This document shows, one piece after another, positions 17,665 to 34,246 of a stretch of 64,000 nt of DNA. This DNA is from Erythrobacter sp. (GTDB taxonomy: Bacteria > Pseudomonadota > Alphaproteobacteria > Sphingomonadales > Sphingomonadaceae). The number at the start of each line of letters is the position of its first letter. Position 1 is the first letter of the stretch. Under the pieces are notes generated by a model, which saw only the letters and a program-made list of their open reading frames with translations, ran no database searches and was not told where the DNA came from. The stretch covers positions 1,472,215 to 1,536,214 of the forward strand of contig OY829379.1 in NCBI GenBank assembly GCA_963691825.1. Reading direction: 5' to 3'. The translations under genes were made by a program, and so were the position numbers.

Positions 17665-20337
17665 TCAAGCAGCCAATTTGCGCAGCACGTAATGAAGGAT
17701 CCCGCCATTGCGATAATATTCCATTTCGTTGGCGGTATCGATCCGGCACGCGGTTGTGAATGCAAAAGTGGATCCATCTGCGTGGGTCACCGATACCTCG
17801 ACATCTTGCCCCGGCTCCAGATCAGCCAGCCCCGCAATGCTGAATGTGTCATCGGCATTAAGGCCAAAAGATTTGCGCCCCTCGCCCTCCTTAAATTGCA
17901 GCGGCAGCACGCCCATTCCGACCAGATTGGAGCGGTGAATCCGCTCAAAACTCTCGACTATCACTGCCCGCACGCCCAGCAGGATCGTTCCCTTGGCCGC
18001 CCAGTCGCGCGATGACCCGGTGCCGTATTCCTTGCCACCAACCACAATCAATTGGGTGCCGTCCTGCTTGTGCCGCATTGCCGCATCATAAATTGGCATT
18101 TGCGTCCCATTATAGATGGTGAAGCCTCCTTCGACGCCCGGGACCATTTCGTTTTTGATCCGGATATTGGCAAAGGTGCCGCGCATCATCACGTCGTGAT
18201 TGCCGCGCCTCGAACCATATGAATTGAAATCCTTCTTCAGAACCTGATTTGATTTGAGATAGGAGCCAGCAGGGGAATCTTCCTTGATCGCACCGGCTGG
18301 CGAGATGTGATCGGTGGTCACCGAATCGCCCAGGATCGCCAGCGGCTTCGCATCGAGAATGTCGGTGATCGGCGCCGGCGTCATTTCCATCCCTTCGAAA
18401 TAGGGCGGGTTGGCAACATAGGTTGAGCCGGCGCGCCAGGCATAGGTGTCGGATGGTTCCACCGTAATTGCCTGCCAATGTTCATCGCCTTGATGCACAT
18501 TGGCGTAGCGAGCTTCAAACATGGACCGATCAATATTGGCTGCCCGATTGTGCGCAATCTCGGCATTGGTTGGCCACAAATCGGCGAGCATGACGTCATG
18601 GCCGTCTTGGTCCTGTCCAATCGGCGTTGTGGTGATATCCTGTGTCACTGTTCCCAGCAGGGCATAGGCCACAACCAATGGCGGTGATGCAAGGAAGTTG
18701 GCGCGCACATCCGGGCTGACACGGCCTTCAAAGTTGCGATTGCCTGACAAAACACTGGCGGCAACAATATCGTTGCCATTGATCGCTGCGCTGATCGGGG
18801 GGGCAAGCGGGCCAGAATTGCCGATACAGGTCGTGCAGCCATACCCGACGAGGTCAAAACCGATTGCATCGAGATCATCTTGCAATCCCGATTTTTCAAG
18901 ATAATCGGTCACCACTTGCGATCCGGGCGCAAGCGAGGTTTTGACCCATGGTTTGGGCGTGAGACCTTTTGCATGCGCCTTTTGTGCAACCAGACCTGCC
19001 GCGATCATGACATCGGGGTTGGATGTATTGGTGCAGCTTGTGATGGCTGCGATCACAACATCGCCGTCGCCAATGTCGTGATCGGTATCGGCCACATCGA
19101 CGCGTGCCGGTTTATCCTTGTTGTAGATGCTCGCCAGATCGCCGTTAAACAGTTCATCCACCTGCGGCAGCGTCACTCTGTCCTGCGGACGCTTGGGCCC
19201 GGCGAGGCTGGCTTCGACCGTGGCGACATCGAGTTCGAGTGTCTTCGAGAAAACCGGGACATTGTCCGGGTCAAACCAAAGCCCCTGCTCCTTTGAATAG
19301 GCTTCGACCAAGGCGATCTCGTCTTCGCTTCGGCCTGTCAGGCGCAAATAATCAATGGTCTTATCGTCGATCCCGAAAAACCCGCAAGTCGCGCCATATT
19401 CAGGCGCCATATTGGCAATCGTTGCGCGATCGGCGAGCGTCAGGTTGGCAACCCCGGGGCCATAGAATTCGACAAATCTCCCCACAACCCCGACTTCGCG
19501 CAGCATTTGCACACAGGTCAGAACCAGATCGGTTGCGGTCACCCCTTCTGCCATTTTTCCGGTCAATTTGAATCCGACCACTTCCGGGATCAACATTGAG
19601 ATCGGTTGGCCCAGCATAGCCGCCTCGGCCTCGATCCCGCCAACACCCCAGCCCAGCACACCCAAGCCGTTGATCATGGTCGTATGACTGTCTGTTCCAA
19701 CGCATGTGTCGGGATAGGCGACGCGCTCGCCCGCCTCGTCAGTGCTTGACCAGATGCCCTTGGCGATGTGCTCCAGGTTCACCTGATGGCAAATGCCAGT
19801 TCCAGGAGGCACCGCGGAAAAGTTCTCAAAGCTCTTGGAGCCCCATTTGAGGAAATCGTAGCGCTCGGCATTGCGCTCATATTCGAGCGCCATATTGGCT
19901 TCCATTGCGTGAGGATGGCCAAATTCGTCGACCATCACCGAATGATCGATCACCAGATTGACCGGAACCTGCGGGTTGATCTTGTCGGTGTCCCCGCCCA
20001 GTTTCTTGATCGCATCGCGCATCGCGGCAAGATCGACAACACACGGCACGCCGGTGAAATCTTGCAATAAGACGCGCGCCGGGCGGTACTGGATTTCATT
20101 GCCCGTAACCGGGTTGTTCTGCCAATCGACGACCGCCTCGATATGCTCTCGTCCCACGGTAAAGCCGCCATCTTCGAAGCGCAGGAGATTTTCCAGCAGC
20201 ACTTTCATCGAGATCGGCAGGCGTGACACATCACCCAATTGCTGCGCCGCTTTGGCAAGCGAGTAATAGGCATAGGTCTGCCCGTTCACATCGAGCGATG
20301 AGCGGGTCGCAAGGCTGTCATTGCCGGTGGCTGTCAT
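17665..20337 (-). CDS. acnA: Aconitate hydratase A
   Basis: [38 protein letters not shown] and [13 protein letters not shown]. Confidence 0.98.
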
Positions 20338-26318: not shown

Positions 26319-26834
26319 TTAGATCGCTTTCTGCGCCAATGCCGCCAGCTCATCATAGATCGCGTCTTCTTCGCGGCTTGCGGCGTTGCGCCAAGTGGTC
26401 GCGGTGTCGCGGTTGAGCAGCGCGCCATCTGCGCTCAGCACCAGAAGATTGGGTGTGCCGGGCAAATCATCGACCCCGAAACGCCGGGCGATGTGCAGAT
26501 TATGGCCATCGCCCGATTGCGGCATGCCGATATTGACGAAGACAAGTTCGTATCTGTCATCAACCAAGGCGCCAATGCGTTCGCTGGCCAGCCATCCGGC
26601 GAGCTCGCGGCTGTCATGGCACCAGTTTGCGCCCATCACCACCATGACGCGTTTGCCATTTTCCCCGGCGCGGGCAAGCGCGGCCTCGACATCGCCCATC
26701 GCGTCATCGGACACCGCGTAAGAGCGCGCCTCGGGGTAATCATGCCCGTGCGCATGGGTGAGCGCGCCAGCCAGCATCCCTGCGCCGATCACAGCAGCGG
26801 TCGCCAGAAATCCGGCGAGAACAGGTTTGATCAT
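26319..26834 (-). CDS. Exported thioredoxin-family protein (single-Cys WCHDS)
   Basis: Signal peptide; [11 protein letters not shown] and GTPNLLVL (cis-Pro) thioredoxin fold. Confidence 0.85.
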
Positions 26835-27973
26835 TCGGCCGCTTCTGCCGCATGCGGGTCAAAGGCAACCGCTTCGCCGGCTTCGATCTTGGCGGCTTTT
26901 TCTTCGACCAGACGCACAATGTGATCGAGCATGTCCTCATCCTCAATCGTGTGCGCCTTCACGCCGGAGAGGTAGACCATGTGCTTGCCAGAGCCGCCAC
27001 CAGTCAGGCCAATATCGGTTTCGCGCGCTTCGCCCGGGCCATTGACCACGCAGCCCAGCACCGAAAGGCTCATGGGTGTCTTGATGTGTTCAAGCCGCTT
27101 TTCGAGCGTTTCAACCGTGCGAATAACGTCAAATCCCTGGCGCGAGCAGGAGGGGCAGGAGACCACTCGCACACCGCGCGTGCGCAGGCCCAGGGCTTTG
27201 AGCATTTCATAGCCGACCTTGACCTCTTCCTCCGGCTCGGCCGAAAGCGAGACCCGGATCGTATCGCCAATCCCGGCCCACAGCAGCGAACCCATCCCGA
27301 TCGAGGATTTGACCGTTCCGCCGATCAATCCGCCCGCCTCGGTGATGCCAAGGTGCAAGGGGCAATCCACCGCATCGGCCAATCCATGATAGGCCGCCAC
27401 AGCGAGGAACACATCGGACGCTTTGACCGCGACCTTGAAATCATGGAAATCGTGGTCTTGCAAAAGCTTGATATGATCAAGCGCGCTCTCGATCAGCGCT
27501 TCGGGACACGGCTCCCCATATTTTTCGAGCAGGTCCTTTTCCAAGCTGCCGGCATTGACCCCGATCCGGATCGCACAGCCATTGGCTTTGGCCGCGCGCA
27601 CAACTTCGGCGACCTTTTTTTCATTGCCGATATTGCCCGGATTGATCCGCAGGCAAGCGGCCCCGCCATCAGCCGCTTCGAGCGCGCGTTTGTAATGAAA
27701 GTGGATGTCGGCAACGACCGGGATATTGGCCGCCCGGGTGATCAACGGAAAGGCGGCGGTCGCCTCTTCGGTTGGGCACGAGACACGGATGATATCACAC
27801 CCCACCTCTTCGCAGCGGCGGATCTGATCGATCGTTGCCGCCGCGTCTTCGGTGGGGGTGTTGGTCATGGTTTGAACCGTGATCGGCGCATTGCCGCCCA
27901 CAGGAACATCACCCACCATGATCTGGCGACAATTGCGCCGGTCGATATCGCGCCAAGGCCGTACTGAAGACAT
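26831..27973 (-). CDS. ispG: 4-hydroxy-3-methylbut-2-en-1-yl diphosphate synthase
   Basis: [27 protein letters not shown] and GCVVNGPGE. Confidence 0.98.
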
Positions 27974-28047
27974 GGGGGCCGGTATAGGCGCGCAAAGCCC
28001 AAGGGGCAATAATGCAAGAGCGCGCTGTGTTCAGCCCGGTTGGCGGA

Positions 28048-28710
28048 TTACCAGCGGATCAGGGGCGGCGCGGCAAACCGCCAGAAAATCGCCCCGATAA
28101 AAGCCGGTGTCACATGCCAGAAGCCGATATGCAGAAGCGAATCGAGCGGGCAGGTGATGTTGTAAGCCAACGCGCCAAGCGCGCCGCTCGACAGACCGAT
28201 CAGCCAGCCCGCCCGTTCAAGCGAGACCGGCGCCCCGCGGCGCAAATGCCAAATCCCGGCCAATGCAATCACCGAAGAGGCGGCCAATCCGCGCGCGGCG
28301 CATTTCCAATAGAGCAGGCCCGGATCATCCATGCCCATTCCATGGTCATGCCCGGCCTCGATCGAAATGAGGGTGATCATCGCTGCGATGGGTAGGACCG
28401 CCAGGATTGCAGTGCTCCATTGCGAGGCGGAGGTGCGTTGCCCAATACGCGGATTGGCGCTGGCGACGAGCGCGGCGGTGCTGGCGACGCCCACAACGCC
28501 CAGCAGGCCGTTGCTGATCCAGTAAAAGGGTGATGCTTCGCCGGTCAAAGCGCCAAACCAAAAACCATAATACACAACGCAGGCAATTCCTGCTGCCAGT
28601 GTCGCACATACGATCATTGCGGCCCCGTCGCGCGGCCTCACCCGCCTAACCGGTGTCATATCAGCCGTTAGGGCGGCGATAAGATCATCTCGGGATTGGT
28701 GTTTTTCCAT
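28048..28710 (-). CDS. nrsF: NrsF-type (DUF1109) membrane anti-sigma factor
   Basis: DDLIAALTADMTPVRR N-terminus, six TM segments, conserved periplasmic Cys (WKCAARG, ITCPLDS) and HIGFWH; directly follows the ECF sigma. Confidence 0.88.
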   Translation of the reverse strand: MEKHQSRDDLIAALTADMTPVRRVRPRDGAAMIVCATLAAGIACVVYYGFWFGALTGEASPFYWISNGLLGVVGVASTAALVASANPRIGQRTSASQWSTAILAVLPIAAMITLISIEAGHDHGMGMDDPGLLYWKCAARGLAASSVIALAGIWHLRRGAPVSLERAGWLIGLSSGALGALAYNITCPLDSLLHIGFWHVTPAFIGAIFWRFAAPPLIRW

Positions 28711-28712
28711 TT

Positions 28713-29243
28713 CTACTGTTCTTCCTCGACCAAGGTGGCCAGTTTCTTCAGGCCACGATGGATATTCACTTTAACAAGACTTTCACTCTGCCCAGTTTTC
28801 TCGGCAGCTTCACGAATCGACAAGCCACTGATTTTGACCAATTCGATCACTTGGGATTGTTTGTGTGGCAATTGTTTGAACAAGCGATCGAGGCTGACGC
28901 GTGACATCACGACTTCTTCGTCACTGTCCTCAACCGCGTCGCCTTCAAGCAGTTCCTTGCTCTCATGTTTATAAACTTTGCGCAGGTGGTCGACCCAGCG
29001 ATAGCGCGCGATTGCGGCCATCCATGGCAAAAACGGGCGCGCCGGATCCCAGCTTGCTCGCTTGGTGTAAAGCGCAATCAGCACCTCCTGCACCAGATCA
29101 TCAATGGCGTGCGGGGGGATGCGCCGTTTGAAATAGCGTTCAAGCCAAACGCCCGCCTCTGCCAGCAACACATTGGCGGCGGCTTTATCGCCGTCCTGTG
29201 TTGCCATCATGAGGCGGGCGAAGGTTGGCTCGTCAGCGACCAT
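28713..29243 (-). CDS. sigF: ECF16 / SigF-type RNA polymerase sigma factor
   Basis: LMMATQDGD, DLVQEVL, WDPARPFLPWMAAIARYRWVD and LVKVNIHRGLKKL; paired with nrsF. Confidence 0.92.
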   Translation of the reverse strand: MVADEPTFARLMMATQDGDKAAANVLLAEAGVWLERYFKRRIPPHAIDDLVQEVLIALYTKRASWDPARPFLPWMAAIARYRWVDHLRKVYKHESKELLEGDAVEDSDEEVVMSRVSLDRLFKQLPHKQSQVIELVKISGLSIREAAEKTGQSESLVKVNIHRGLKKLATLVEEEQ

Positions 29244-29256
29244 ATCCCTACCTCGA

Positions 29257-29730
29257 TCAGGCCTCCGTACGCGCGCTCAGGCGGCTCAAGATGTGATCGA
29301 CGCTCAAGACGCCGGGGCCGCGGCTGATGATGATGCCAGCCATAGCCAGCACGGTGATGTCCCAGCCGAAGAAATGCGCCCAAGTGGGGAATACAAAAAT
29401 CTGGATCACCAATGCCATCACCGCAAGGCCGGCCGCAGCAAAGCGGCTAAACAGGCCAACAATCAGCAGGATCGGCAAAAGAAATTCTGCATAGACCGTC
29501 ATGGGCACCGCCAGATCAGGCGCGATTGGCAGGCCTGTAAATTCATTGGCGAAGATGACGTATTGGGTCGGATCGATTTGCAGCCATGTGCCATCGATCA
29601 CCTTGGTTTCATAGGAGCGCCAGAAGATCAGACCCAATGCAATGCGGGTGAGCAACAAAGCGACGCTTTCGATTGCAGTGCCCGACAAAATGCCGGTGAT
29701 CCGCGACCAGAGTGATTGAAGCGCTTCCAT
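29257..29730 (-). CDS. DoxX-family membrane protein (bufferin BufD-like)
   Basis: LLTRIALGLIFWRS, YAEFLLPILLIVGLFSR and GPGVLSVD. Confidence 0.9.
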   Translation of the reverse strand: MEALQSLWSRITGILSGTAIESVALLLTRIALGLIFWRSYETKVIDGTWLQIDPTQYVIFANEFTGLPIAPDLAVPMTVYAEFLLPILLIVGLFSRFAAAGLAVMALVIQIFVFPTWAHFFGWDITVLAMAGIIISRGPGVLSVDHILSRLSARTEA

Positions 29731-29905
29731 TATGTCCTCCGTTGGAATGTGGACGTTTGGCTTTTACCTGATGGGCCAAACGGATGAATTGGATTCTGGC
29801 CGCTTGCTCACTCTTCTCATCGCTCGTGTAAATAAGGCCAGTGTGGCCCAAGCGGGATAGGAAAAGCAAGCAAGCAGACCGGATGGGTTGGTTTGCCCCG
29901 GCCGA

Positions 29906-30187
29906 TTAGCGGTCGATCGGGGTTAGCGAACCTTTGCCCTTGGGGGTTTCGATACTGGTGCAGGTCCCCTTGTCGACATAGGTCCAGGCATTGCCTTGAT
30001 AGTCGCGGGTTGAAGTGCCAGCGCAGCTTGTACCCGGACCAGCGGCGCAATCATTTTCGCCAGCAAGCGAGACGCCGTAACATTTCTCTTTGGCACCTTG
30101 CGCAGCAGCAGGCGCGGTCGCAAGACCAGCGGTGACGCCAGCGCTCAAAGCGAGACCGGCAAGCGAAGCGATAGATCTGGTATTCAT
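29906..30187 (-). CDS. DUF2282 / BufA1-type bufferin precursor peptide (93 aa)
   Basis: Signal peptide ending AAA; core [26 protein letters not shown]...[11 protein letters not shown] with four Cys; SD GGAGA. True start is 30187, not 30493. Confidence 0.92.
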
Positions 30188-30257
30188 AGTTTCTCTCCAA
30201 AAAACCGTGTGCAAGTAAGCGTCCCGCAGCACGGCGTGCTCGTGGGACCGCACAGGT

Positions 30258-30283
30258 TTCGCGGCGGCGGAGCGAATGGTTAC
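30258..30283 (-). promoter_or_regulatory. SigmaF-type promoter driving precursor-doxX-sigF-nrsF
   Basis: Minus strand GTAACC (30283-30278), 16 nt, CGAA (30261-30258); exact match to the Caulobacter sigmaF consensus. Confidence 0.85.
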
Positions 30284-30319
30284 ACACAGAATGCAAAACA
30301 TCATTTTGCATTCTGTGTG
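30283..30319. repeat. Perfect 16-bp inverted repeat CACACAGAATGCAAAA-CATCA-TTTTGCATTCTGTGTG
   Basis: Read directly; lies between the two divergent -35 elements. Confidence 0.95.
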
Positions 30320-30343
30320 GCGGCGATCAGCGCAGCATTTTAT

Positions 30344-30369
30344 GTAACCACGCAGCGCGCGCGCACGAA
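30344..30369 (+). promoter_or_regulatory. SigmaF-type promoter driving MNIO-DUF2063
   Basis: GTAACC (30344-30349), 16 nt, CGAA (30366-30369). Confidence 0.85.
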
Positions 30370-30431
30370 TTATGAGATAGGTGCACACACACCTGTCCCG
30401 TGCGATCCATTTGTCTGCTAGTGGAGATGTT

Positions 30432-31301
30432 ATGACGACGCCGCGCGAACCGATCCCCCCTTTTGGAGGCTTTGGCCTTGGCCTGCGCCGCACCCATTAT
30501 GACGATTTTCTCAGCGGCCATGTGGCGGTCGATTTCGTTGAAGTGATCAGCGAAAATTACATGATCGAAGGTGGGCGACAGCTGCGCATTCTGGAACAGG
30601 TGCGGGCCAGCTTGCCGGTCATTGCGCATGGTGTTTCGATGTCGATCGGGTCGGCTGGCGGGCTTGATCGCGATCACCTTGCACGGCTCAAAATCCTCGA
30701 GCAACGGATCGATCCGCTGTTTGTGTCGGATCATTTGTGCTGGACCAGGACGAGCGCGCACAATTCGCACGATTTGTTGCCCATGCCTCTGACGCGCGAC
30801 GCGCTGGATGTGGTGTGCGACAATATTGACGAGGCGCAAAATGCTCTGGGGCGGGCCATGCTGTTCGAAAACCCGTCGAGCTATCTCACTTTCCCCGAAG
30901 ACGAGATGACCGAATGGGAATTCCTGAGCCAGATGGCACAGCGCAGTGGATGCTATCTGCTGCTCGATGTGAACAATATTTATGTGTCATCGCGCAATCA
31001 CGGTTTTTGCGCCGATGATTATCTTGCTGGCCTGCCGCTGGACCGGGTGCGCCAGATCCATCTAGCAGGCCATGATCCGGCCACGCCTGAACGCGATATT
31101 ATCATTGATACACATGACCGCGCGGTCGCCGATCCGGTGTGGGAATTGTACGCCAAGGCGATGGCCATGTTGCCGCAACCGGTCGCAACCATGATCGAAC
31201 GCGATGAGGATATCCCGGCAATTGGCGTGCTGCTCGATGAGTTGGACCATGCGCGCAATATCGCTGGCGGTGCGGGGCACAAGGCGCTCGAACCGGCATG
31301 A
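30432..31301 (+). CDS. MNIO / DUF692 multinuclear non-heme iron oxidase (BufB-like)
   Basis: [53 protein letters not shown] and IERD; SD GGAG before the ATG at 30432. Confidence 0.95.
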
Positions 31302-32137
31302 CCAAACGTTCTGAAGGCACCTCAGCCAAGCCGCCCCGCGCCGACCTTGCTCAGCGACAGCAGGCCTTCTTGCAAGCGATCCATGACGATCGGGCGCCGC
31401 TGCCCTCGGGATGGGGCAATCGCCAGGCTGCGGGCATGGCGGTCTATCGCGGCAATTACCGCTCTGCATTGATGGCGGCTCTGGCTGATCTTTATGAGCG
31501 CACCGCGCTTTATGTTGGCGAAGAGGCGTTTCGGCGGGCCTCTATGCACCACATAATCACCCAGCCTCCCTCGGGCTGGACGATTGATGAGGCGGGGGCA
31601 GGCTTTGACAAAACCTGCGCGCAATTGTTTGGCGACAATCCCGAAGTGAGCGAGCTGGCTTGGTTGGAATGGACCATGCGCGAATTGGCCAGTGCGCCCG
31701 ACACGCTCGCTATGGCCCCGGCCGATTTTGCCGAGGCCGGGGCGCATTTCGGCGATGAGGAATGGGCCAATCTGCGTCTTGCCTTGCAACCGCGCGCTGC
31801 CGCAAGGTTGGTTGGGCATGATTGCGAAAAGCTGTGGCGCGCGCTTGATACAGCCAGCTCGAACGCGCCCGATCGGTCGCACGCCCGGCTCGCCTCTCCC
31901 CAAAGCTGTCTCGTCTGGCGCGAGGGGGAGCGTCCCACTTTCGTGATGGTCGAGGCGGATCATGCGGCGGCTTTTCATGCGGTTGCGGGGGGCGCGAATT
32001 ACGCCGAAATGATCGGCGCCTTATTGGGCGATGATCCGGACCCCGCGCCGCAATTGGTCGAACACGCCGCGATGCGGGCTGGCGCGATTTTGGGCCGCTG
32101 GCTGCAAGAGGGGCTGATTGTGGGGCTTAACCCCTGA
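31298..32137 (+). CDS. DUF2063 / BufC-HvfC-like MNIO partner protein
   Basis: GMAVYRGNYRSALMAALADLY and ELAWLEW; ATGA overlap with the MNIO gene. Confidence 0.9.
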   Translation: MTKRSEGTSAKPPRADLAQRQQAFLQAIHDDRAPLPSGWGNRQAAGMAVYRGNYRSALMAALADLYERTALYVGEEAFRRASMHHIITQPPSGWTIDEAGAGFDKTCAQLFGDNPEVSELAWLEWTMRELASAPDTLAMAPADFAEAGAHFGDEEWANLRLALQPRAAARLVGHDCEKLWRALDTASSNAPDRSHARLASPQSCLVWREGERPTFVMVEADHAAAFHAVAGGANYAEMIGALLGDDPDPAPQLVEHAAMRAGAILGRWLQEGLIVGLNP

Positions 32138-32273
32138 ACACCTGTGGGCGATTACCGGTTGGCATGGTGCCTACAACCACCCCAAGCGGCAAAAAACCCG
32201 TATCGTTTCGTCTGAAACTCTATGCCTGCTTGACACATGGGCGTGCTCGTTCAGGGTCGGCGCAAAGGGAGAT

Positions 32274-33227
32274 ATGATTTTGACCAACACCGCAATCGAA
32301 CTGCGCAGCCCCAAGCCTAGCCTGATGCTGCGCGGGGTCAAATGGTTGATGAGCAAGCGCCAAGGCGTCTTTCCTAACGAGGCGGATGAATTCCGCGCCG
32401 CAATGGCCGGGCGCGAATTGCCTAAAGACGCGCCCATGCCCGCCGCCTTTGACGCCAGGTTTCAGGTGGAACGCTGGGAAGCGGAAGGCCAGCAGGTGAT
32501 CACCTTGCACCCCAAATCGGGGCCGGGTGAATGGCATATGCTGTATTTCCATGGCGGCGGCTTTGTCTTACCGATGTTCAAGGAACACTGGCCGCTGGCT
32601 CAGGCGATGGTCGAAACCTGCGGGGTCAGCTTGACTTTGCCAATGTATGATGTGGTGCCCGAAAGCGCGCACAGCGTGCAAGATGCGCTCGCAGATGCGG
32701 CCTTTGCCAAATTGTGCGAAAGCCATGATCCGGCCAAAATCATCCTCAACGGTGACAGCGCGGGCGGTCATATGGCGCTCTCGCTTGCGCTGCGTCTGGC
32801 GAAAGCGGCGAAGGATGGTGGCGGCAAGCAGCCGGGCAAGCTGGCTTTGTTTGCGCCGTGGCTTGATATGACCATGGCCGATCCCGCCGTCGCCGCGGTC
32901 GAACCGCATGACATCATGCTCAAAATGGGCACGTTGCGCGCATGCGGCGCGATGTTTGCCGGCGAGCGTGACCCCGCCAGCGCGCAATGCAGCCCGCTTT
33001 ACACCGATCCGGCTGATCTCGCTTTGTTGCCGCCGACGCGGATCTGGACCGGGCGGCATGATGTTTTCATCGTCGATTCGCGCACATTTGTGGGCAAGTT
33101 GCGCGATGCGGGGGTTGATGCGAAACTCTACGAATACGAAGCCGCGCCGCATGTCTATATGGCGATTGTGCCCACGCGCGAGGCCAAGGATACGATGGCT
33201 TTGCTGCGCGATTTTATCGCGGAGTAA
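32274..33227 (+). CDS. HSL-family (alpha/beta hydrolase_3) esterase/lipase
   Basis: YFHGGGF oxyanion motif, GDSAGG nucleophile, D and H (AAPHVY). Confidence 0.92.
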   Translation: MILTNTAIELRSPKPSLMLRGVKWLMSKRQGVFPNEADEFRAAMAGRELPKDAPMPAAFDARFQVERWEAEGQQVITLHPKSGPGEWHMLYFHGGGFVLPMFKEHWPLAQAMVETCGVSLTLPMYDVVPESAHSVQDALADAAFAKLCESHDPAKIILNGDSAGGHMALSLALRLAKAAKDGGGKQPGKLALFAPWLDMTMADPAVAAVEPHDIMLKMGTLRACGAMFAGERDPASAQCSPLYTDPADLALLPPTRIWTGRHDVFIVDSRTFVGKLRDAGVDAKLYEYEAAPHVYMAIVPTREAKDTMALLRDFIAE

Positions 33228-33283
33228 CCCGAGCCCCCACTGATCCCCGACCGAGCCCAACTCTAACCCGGACCTGCGCGGGG

Positions 33284-34246
33284 TCAGGCGCTGAAACGCT
33301 CGCCGGTCATGTCCTCGGACAAGGCCCACAGCGCATCGGCGATCTCGGGATCAATGGCATAGCCGCGCACGCCACCGGCCGTGCTGTCATCGTCGCGCGC
33401 GGCGACGTGGCAATCTTCGCAATAGAGCGCGCCTTGGCCCTCCAATGTTGCGCTGGTCGCGGCCCAGACCTGTGTCGCGGCGCCTTGCGGGATGGTTTTG
33501 AATGTCATCGCCCCGCCATTGGTTTTCATTCGCTCCATCAGCGCGGCGATATCATCCTGCGTCAAATGGCGGCCCAGATTGGTCTGGATGCCGCCCGGAT
33601 GCACGGCCAGCGCATGAATGCCATGCGCGCCAAAGCGTTTCTCCAGCCCCACCGAGAACAGCACATTGGCGGTTTTGGCCCGGCCATAGCTGACCCATGG
33701 ATCGTAATCGGTCGTCTCGAAATTGGGGTCATCCAGATTGGTCGGGGCCAGATGGTGGCCGCGGCTCGACAGATTGACGATGCGTTTATTGGCGCCCCGC
33801 ATGATCAGCGGCATCAGATGTTTGGTCAGCGCAAAATGGCCCAGATGGTTGGTGCCAAACTGCATCTCGAACCCGTCAGCGGTGTGCATTTTGGGGCAGG
33901 CCATAACCCCTGCATTGTTGATCAACAGATCGATCTGCTCGAACCGGCTGGCTGCTTCTTGCCCGCAGGCCTTGATGCTGGCGAGCGAGGCGAGGTCGCA
34001 GATGATCGTCTCCAGCTTGGCGTCTTTTTGCGCCTCTTTGATCGCGGCGATGGCGGCGTCCAACTTGCCCTGATCGCGCGCGGCCAGAATGACATGGGCC
34101 CCCTTGGCCGCCATGGCGCGCGCGGTTTCCAGCCCGAGGCCCGAATTGCCGCCGGTCACAAACACTTTTGTCCCGGTCAGATCATGGCCCTCCAAAACGT
34201 CATCCGTGGTCGAAGCGGCGCCGAAACTTTGCTCAGTGTTGGCCAT
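33284..34246 (-). CDS. SDR oxidoreductase (retinol dehydrogenase/WWOX-like)
   Basis: TGGNSGLG, NNAGVM, FGTNHLGHF and YGRAK catalytic motif. Confidence 0.92.
   Translation of the reverse strand: MANTEQSFGAASTTDDVLEGHDLTGTKVFVTGGNSGLGLETARAMAAKGAHVILAARDQGKLDAAIAAIKEAQKDAKLETIICDLASLASIKACGQEAASRFEQIDLLINNAGVMACPKMHTADGFEMQFGTNHLGHFALTKHLMPLIMRGANKRIVNLSSRGHHLAPTNLDDPNFETTDYDPWVSYGRAKTANVLFSVGLEKRFGAHGIHALAVHPGGIQTNLGRHLTQDDIAALMERMKTNGGAMTFKTIPQGAATQVWAATSATLEGQGALYCEDCHVAARDDDSTAGGVRGYAIDPEIADALWALSEDMTGERFSA

Follow-up and report, generated by a model that had tools for sequence, protein, structure and literature searches.

The spacer between the bufferin genes bufA and bufB of this Erythrobacter sp. 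harbors two exact SigF/ECF16-type promoter motifs on opposite strands, and we estimate a probability of about 85% that both function as a divergent promoter pair recognised by RNA polymerase with the ECF16-type (SigF-like) sigma factor encoded beside them. Judged from its gene content, the locus comprises a bufferin cluster and the SigF/NrsF regulator belonging to it, distributed over two divergent arms: bufA-doxX-ECF sigma-nrsF on the minus strand and bufB-bufC on the plus strand. Coordinates refer to the window, that is, the whole 64,000-nt stretch of DNA analysed, unless another sequence is named. The features of the locus are as follows.

28048-28710, minus strand: nrsF, DUF1109 anti-sigma factor (Pfam NrsF, 110 bits, cut-off 26.8)
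28713-29243, minus strand: ECF sigma factor, SigF-like, ECF16-type (Pfam Sigma70_r2, r4_2, ECF)
29257-29730, minus strand: doxX, bufD-like (Pfam DoxX, 50 bits)
29906-30187, minus strand: bufA, DUF2282 bufferin precursor (Pfam PF10048, 86 bits)
30258-30283, minus strand: P_bufA, putative SigF/ECF16-type promoter, exact GTAACC-N16-CGAA match
30344-30369, plus strand: P_bufB, putative SigF/ECF16-type promoter, exact GTAACC-N16-CGAA match
30432-31301, plus strand: bufB, MNIO (DUF692) bufferin maturase (NCBIfam MNIO_BufB NF050167, 361.6 bits, cut-off 310; Pfam, 344.8 bits)
31298-32137, plus strand: bufC, DUF2063 partner (Pfam PF09836, 54.7 bits)
32118-33227, plus strand: alpha/beta hydrolase (Pfam Abhydrolase_3)

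The initial annotation had described the two sites as exact and back to back, and both sequence reading and a pattern search found them at these positions. The forward strand reads GGTTAC at 30278-30283 and TTCG at 30258-30261, which corresponds to GTAACC-N16-CGAA on the minus strand; the -35 element GTAACC of P_bufA thus lies at 30283-30278, preceded by a T at 30284, and its -10 element CGAA at 30261-30258. In P_bufB, the -35 element occupies 30344-30349, with a T at 30343, and the -10 element 30366-30369, so that both sites have the extended form with a T directly 5' of GTAACC. The 60 nt between the two -35 hexamers and the 244-nt length of the spacer, from the bufA ATG (30187) to the bufB ATG (30432), were both reproduced. 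The distance from the -10 element to the ATG is 70 nt for bufA and 62 nt for bufB, and transcription is predicted to start at about 30249-30252 on the minus strand and at about 30375-30378 on the plus strand.

The motif had been assigned to the Caulobacter SigF (ECF16) consensus, which agrees with the literature (PMC3511200 and PMC8315932). GTAACC-N16-CGAA is the Caulobacter SigF-binding sequence, which was defined with 5'RACE, with primer extension and with lacZ fusions tested in the wild type, a delta-sigF strain and a sigF overexpressor (PMC3511200), and the ECF16 consensus is given as (T/C)GTAAC-N17-CGAA, the group being defined by a six-TM DUF1109 anti-sigma factor (PMC8315932). The sites described here show the -35 and -10 match, the spacing and the distance from the start codons of an ECF16 promoter, and a cognate ECF sigma with NrsF lies at the same locus.

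The two exact matches had been regarded as strong support, and the statistics for the window bear this out: they are the only two in the 64 kb, where shuffling gives an expectation of 0.07, and none of 100 shuffles contained two or more. A genome-wide motif scan, which had been proposed as a way to define the regulon, yielded 10 exact sites in the 3.18-Mb single-contig genome, two of them in the bufA-bufB spacer. The exact motif is not enriched across the genome, since the reversed control pattern gives 14 sites against these 10; the genome-wide count is therefore uninformative, and the support rests on placement and conservation. With only 10 exact sites in the whole genome, the occurrence of two on opposite strands of one 244-nt spacer is far beyond chance.

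Conservation was assessed in the 80 loci returned by a BufB-based scan, mostly from Erythrobacter, Qipengyuania, Porphyrobacter and other Sphingomonadales. The layout nrsF-sigF-doxX-bufA <> bufB-bufC occurs in 66 of these loci (Erythrobacteraceae/Sphingomonadales). Allowing at most one mismatch with N16 spacing, the minus-strand site was kept in 66/66 bufA-bufB spacers and the plus-strand site in 64/66, mostly as TGTAACG; the two exceptions hold two-mismatch versions at an unchanged position. Permuted motifs matched 0-8 of the 66 spacers, and reversed sequences 0-2. The aligned consensus across the relatives is TGTAAC(C/G)-N16-(G)CGAA, while spacers and flanks are unrelated between species. 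In the relatives, the -10 element stands 52-98 nt (median 63) from the bufA start, compared with 70 nt in the window, and the two -35 elements are separated by 22-237 nt, compared with 60.

The gene content on both arms largely corresponds to a Buf1 cluster. The bufA translation contains a signal peptide followed by four Cys residues, which gives a DUF2282 precursor with signal peptide and Cys, and the MNIO is accompanied by its DUF2063 partner. The single-operon order bufA-bufB-bufC-bufD is not found here, and the split layout is the one conserved in the 66 loci. NrsF and MNIO are each encoded once in the genome, DUF2282 twice. The alpha/beta hydrolase gene lies 3' of bufC in most same-genus relatives and is possibly a third gene of the plus arm. 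At the far end of the minus arm, ispG (gcpE; 26831-28009, minus strand), an Fe-S enzyme gene, lies 3' of nrsF on the same strand at a gap of about 40-75 nt. The nrsF-ispG gap has no terminator-like structure, and most relatives show the same synteny; under metal stress, transcription from P_bufA might conceivably continue into ispG.

The putative ECF16-type sigma factor encoded in the minus arm has PRK12539 as its best NCBIfam match, and its best NCBIfam matches all fall below their cut-offs. The nrsF gene directly follows and encodes the sole NrsF of the genome. Inspection of its translation revealed six hydrophobic segments, read as six TM. Cys137 and Cys187, 50 residues apart, are conserved in 63-64 of 65 relatives, and a conserved HxH motif (GHDHGMGMDD) lies beside Cys137 in the predicted periplasmic loops (loop residues 118-141 and 186-194). 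It is possible that the HxH motif, Cys137 and Cys187 are direct metal-sensing residues.

Six of the 10 exact sites in the genome precede a start codon by 24-73 nt and are correctly oriented towards it. The genes concerned are bufA, bufB, an orphan DUF2282 gene, a DoxX + Pyr_redox_2 fusion, a VTT/DedA + Pyr_redox_2 fusion and gdhA. The three fusion or orphan genes outside the buf locus are as follows.

G000:C1:850240-850671 (L095:1270-1701): orphan second DUF2282 gene, exact TGTAACC-N16-CGAA 62 nt upstream
G000:C1:2013294-2015488 (L097:494-2688): VTT/DedA + Pyr_redox_2 (pyridine-nucleotide disulphide oxidoreductase) fusion, exact site 30-33 nt upstream
G000:C1:2966434-2968735 (L096:434-2735): DoxX + Pyr_redox_2 fusion, TGTAACC-N16-GCGAA 24 nt before the ATG

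The orphan DUF2282 product has a lipoprotein-like signal (LAAC), and its site is kept in 11 of 13 same-genus relatives at 55-68 nt. The site of the VTT-reductase fusion is kept in 15 of 22 relatives at 20-75 nt, and the gene is therefore likely a new member of the SigF regulon. The same sigma appears to drive also the orphan DUF2282 lipoprotein gene and the DedA-flavoprotein reductase fusion. The DoxX-reductase fusion is a weak candidate for a conserved target: the gene is present in about one third of the same-genus genomes, and the site is kept in one of six relatives. As a regulon member gdhA was rejected, with the site in essentially 0/17 relatives, and it doubles as a negative control.

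We considered whether the two matches could be chance occurrences or decayed relics devoid of promoter function. The genome-wide count of exact sites, no higher than that of the control, would fit such a reading, and the gdhA site seems to be a chance match of just this kind. Against it stand the expectation of 0.07 for the window and the retention of the sites in 64-66 of 66 loci despite diverging spacers, and these conservation data effectively refute it, leaving a probability close to nil. A different question is whether the motifs are read by another ECF sigma of the genome rather than by the adjacent one. Candidates exist, since the genome gives 13 matches to sigma region 4_2, nine of them above the cut-off, and the Caulobacter sigF promoter is not exclusively SigF-dependent. 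However, the motif is specific to NrsF-paired ECF16 sigmas in the four species studied, and the sole NrsF of this genome adjoins this sigma. In addition, the VTT-reductase site is found in 13 of 16 same-genus genomes with NrsF versus two of five without, a weak trend only, as the genomes are related and not independent. We therefore regard reading by another sigma as very improbable. Motif identity, the sole NrsF and the footprint in 64-66 of 66 loci uphold the earlier proposal that the adjacent ECF sigma drives both arms. The accompanying claim that it drives its own gene gained indirect support only, namely from the third position of the sigma gene in the minus arm and from the failure to find another promoter or a U-tract terminator upstream of it.

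As to this autoregulation, sigF is separated by 13 nt from doxX and by 2 nt from nrsF. Between bufA and sigF, the window contains no further SigF-like site (at most one mismatch), and 59 of 65 relatives likewise have no second SigF-like site there; the other six, which are more distant (Pontixanthobacter and kin), carry an extra exact SigF-type site just before sigF. A search for sigma-70-like promoters in 27900-33400 found none, and no U-tract terminator was detected upstream of sigF, the bufA-doxX spacer being free of terminator-like matches. A weak terminator-like match in the bufA 5' UTR (30228-30210) was within chance expectation and was discarded. The bufA-doxX spacer contains two structures.

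29754-29782, minus strand: intercistronic hairpin, 8-bp stem, loop CCAUCAGGUAAAA, the local version of a hairpin whose loop starts with UCAGGCA in relatives
29798-29880, minus strand: additional long hairpin, no U-tract, in the 175-nt bufA-doxX spacer

The fold of 29731-29910 has a free energy of -63.1 kcal/mol (z = -3.5). It could be argued from this structure that both promoters are real but that transcription from P_bufA mostly ends or is cut in the spacer, the sigma and anti-sigma genes then depending largely on an internal promoter that escaped recognition, without autoregulation. A 175-nt spacer with two hairpins at z = -3.5 could stop much transcription, the six distant relatives with a separate exact SigF-type site before sigF provide a precedent, and in Caulobacter and Brucella sigF has a promoter of its own. 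On the other hand, the hairpins lack a U-tract and the terminator scan was empty there, the window shows neither a SigF-like (at most one mismatch) nor a sigma-70-like site from bufA to sigF, and the bufA-doxX gap is only 4-50 nt in many relatives, which indicates an operon. We consider the internal-promoter arrangement unlikely; sigF autoregulation via read-through from P_bufA is the likeliest interpretation.

The hairpin near doxX is conserved in itself. A hairpin with a loop starting UCAGGCA occurs in about half of the relatives (e.g. L015:2372-2422, L016:2330-2380), placed just upstream of the doxX ribosome-binding site and lacking a U-tract. Its contiguous stem has a median of 8 bp, compared with 3.5 in shuffled flanks. 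Among 11 copies of equal loop length, 97.3% of cells were paired, with compensatory changes in nine of 10 pairs, while slid controls paired at 35-46%. An Rfam scan of 27900-32300 returned no relevant family, only a chance miRNA match at E = 0.37. A covariance model of the hairpin (R1) missed the divergent copy in the window itself at E < 1 and gave single matches in four of 41 same-genus genomes, three of them at the buf locus; the hairpin is single-copy and locus-specific. It is therefore not a repeat scattered over the genome, and the model performs poorly in genome-wide searches. We interpret the conserved hairpin as a putative intercistronic element for RNA stability or processing rather than as a terminator.

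Between the two -35 elements, an inverted repeat abuts that of P_bufA.

30283-30319, no strand: perfect 16+5+16 palindrome

It is the only copy in the genome and is absent in the relatives, and as a conserved operator it was rejected as a family feature, only an A/T tract being kept. This tract, which spans -11 to -17 relative to the -35 element of P_bufA, is conserved at 76-87% A/T versus 44% in the background and is missing on the plus arm; in the window, the right arm of the palindrome provides the T-tract at -11 to -17. The tract resembles an UP element. Downstream of the -10 element, the bufA leaders of the window (30188-30257, minus strand) and of the relatives show, by eye, a 5'-proximal hairpin of the CCGGC...GCCGG type whose stems vary by species. 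A U-run ahead of the GGAG ribosome-binding site, also seen by eye, is common to these bufA 5' UTRs.

The precursors of the cluster differ between near and distant relatives. More distant Sphingomonadales (L065-L090) encode a 6-Cys Buf2-like precursor at roughly 100-400 nt upstream of bufB (e.g. L070:2633-2917), and such a precursor is found directly upstream of bufB also in one Cupriavidus, in one member of the Parvularculaceae and in other alphaproteobacterial loci. In those distant Sphingomonadales that have the divergent layout, the 6-Cys precursor is positioned downstream of the plus-arm SigF site, and two precursor types therefore surround one MNIO. In the genus and the genome of the window, the 6-Cys precursor is missing (best tblastn match, E = 2), which means that the precursor belonging to the maturase arm has been lost. 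By these searches, only DUF2282 precursors remain, one across the divergent promoter and one at the orphan locus. A broader scheme that combines these observations is tentative, and we hold it to be rather doubtful: the hairpin with its invariant UCAGGCA loop may be an undescribed cis-regulatory RNA (for processing, stability or protein binding) by which the levels of precursor and sigma/anti-sigma message are uncoupled within a single autoregulated ECF operon, a single MNIO of Buf2 ancestry may mature the DUF2282 precursors in trans, and the shared ECF16 promoter, not operon linkage, may define the pathway.

The promoter type and the back-to-back architecture are already known, having been documented experimentally in Brucella, Azospira and Caulobacter. 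In Caulobacter crescentus/vibrioides, SigF sites lie upstream of sigF-nrsF (CC3253-CC3252) and of CC3254-CC3257, now bufA1B1C1D1 (PMC3511200), both operons having the same promoter consensus as here. The gene families are shared as well (DUF2282, DUF692/MNIO, DUF2063, DoxX, ECF sigma, and NrsF with two conserved periplasmic Cys). The mapped start of Caulobacter bufA1 (CC3254) is at -61, and the predicted 5' UTR of bufA here is about 63 nt. Caulobacter NrsF C131 and C181, which are functionally important, are spaced like Cys137 and Cys187. The arrangement differs: Caulobacter has all four buf genes in a single operon (buf1) and a separate promoter for sigF-nrsF, the two units being divergent as judged from the locus-tag order, whereas in the present locus bufA and doxX are joined to the sigma operon, with bufB-bufC by themselves on the opposite arm.

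A similar architecture is seen at the bcrS-abcS / bcrXQP locus of Brucella melitensis, where back-to-back ECF16 promoters (TGTAACC...GCGAA) share one intergenic region (PMC8315932). The Brucella sites are at 18520-18545 on the minus strand (bcrX) and 18584-18609 on the plus strand (bcrS), so that their -35 elements are 38 nt apart; both starts have been determined by 5'RACE, and the sigma controls its own expression (PMC8315932). The sigma gene comes first in its operon there, and the target is a methionine-rich peptide with MsrPQ in a hypochlorite response, not a bufferin cluster. The sigF promoter region is partly active without SigF in both Caulobacter (PMC3511200) and Brucella (PMC8315932). 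In Azospira suillum, the divergent operons sigF-nrsF and yedY1Z1-mrpX each have a SigF-type promoter in a shared intergenic region, with starts determined by RNA-seq; this is a betaproteobacterial system in a perchlorate-reduction island, with other targets and with chlorite/hypochlorite as the inducer. Sigma and NrsF genes have been described as typical of Buf1 clusters within the bufferin BGC families Buf1 and Buf2 (Leprevost et al. 2024, PMC11626156; Microb Genom 2025, PMC12452194), as found here, and MNIO-unlinked precursors and multi-precursor bufferin clusters have already been reported (PMC12452194). In relation to these two families, the MNIO of the window is orthologous by synteny to MNIOs that have an upstream 6-Cys Buf2-like precursor in distant Sphingomonadales, although only DUF2282 (Buf1-type) precursors are left in its genus. 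What is new at this locus is the split cluster, a sigF for which no promoter of its own was found, the covarying UCAGGCA-loop hairpin and the missing 6-Cys precursor.

We propose the following mechanism, modelled in its regulatory part on Caulobacter. In the resting state, the six-TM NrsF would tether the sigma to the membrane. The sigma would be freed by periplasmic stress, with copper, other thiol-reactive metals or oxidants as the probable signals, sensed through the conserved Cys137/Cys187 and the HxH loops of NrsF, and the free sigma would then fire both P_bufA and P_bufB. P_bufA (start near 30250, minus strand) would yield the DUF2282 precursor, doxX, the sigma gene and nrsF, giving positive feedback with a built-in brake, while P_bufB (start near 30376, plus strand) would yield the MNIO maturase bufB, its partner bufC and perhaps the hydrolase. 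Since precursor and maturase lie on opposite strands, an identical promoter for each arm would replace operon linkage and keep their induction coordinated. The RNA structure between bufA and doxX most likely raises the precursor message over doxX-sigF-nrsF, and it would act by processing or 3' protection without full termination.

Knowledge of ECF16 promoters as such is unchanged by this locus. The analysis provides a well-supported promoter map and a small predicted regulon for a SigF/NrsF metal/oxidant stress system in marine Erythrobacteraceae, and a possible use lies in the design of copper-inducible expression tools. The predicted regulon would consist of four units: the two bufferin arms, the orphan DUF2282 lipoprotein and the DedA-flavoprotein reductase fusion. 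In this family, a RiPP pathway would remain co-regulated although its genes are distributed over a divergent promoter pair. This is of use in genome mining, since a precursor and its maturase can be encoded on different strands or in different operons.
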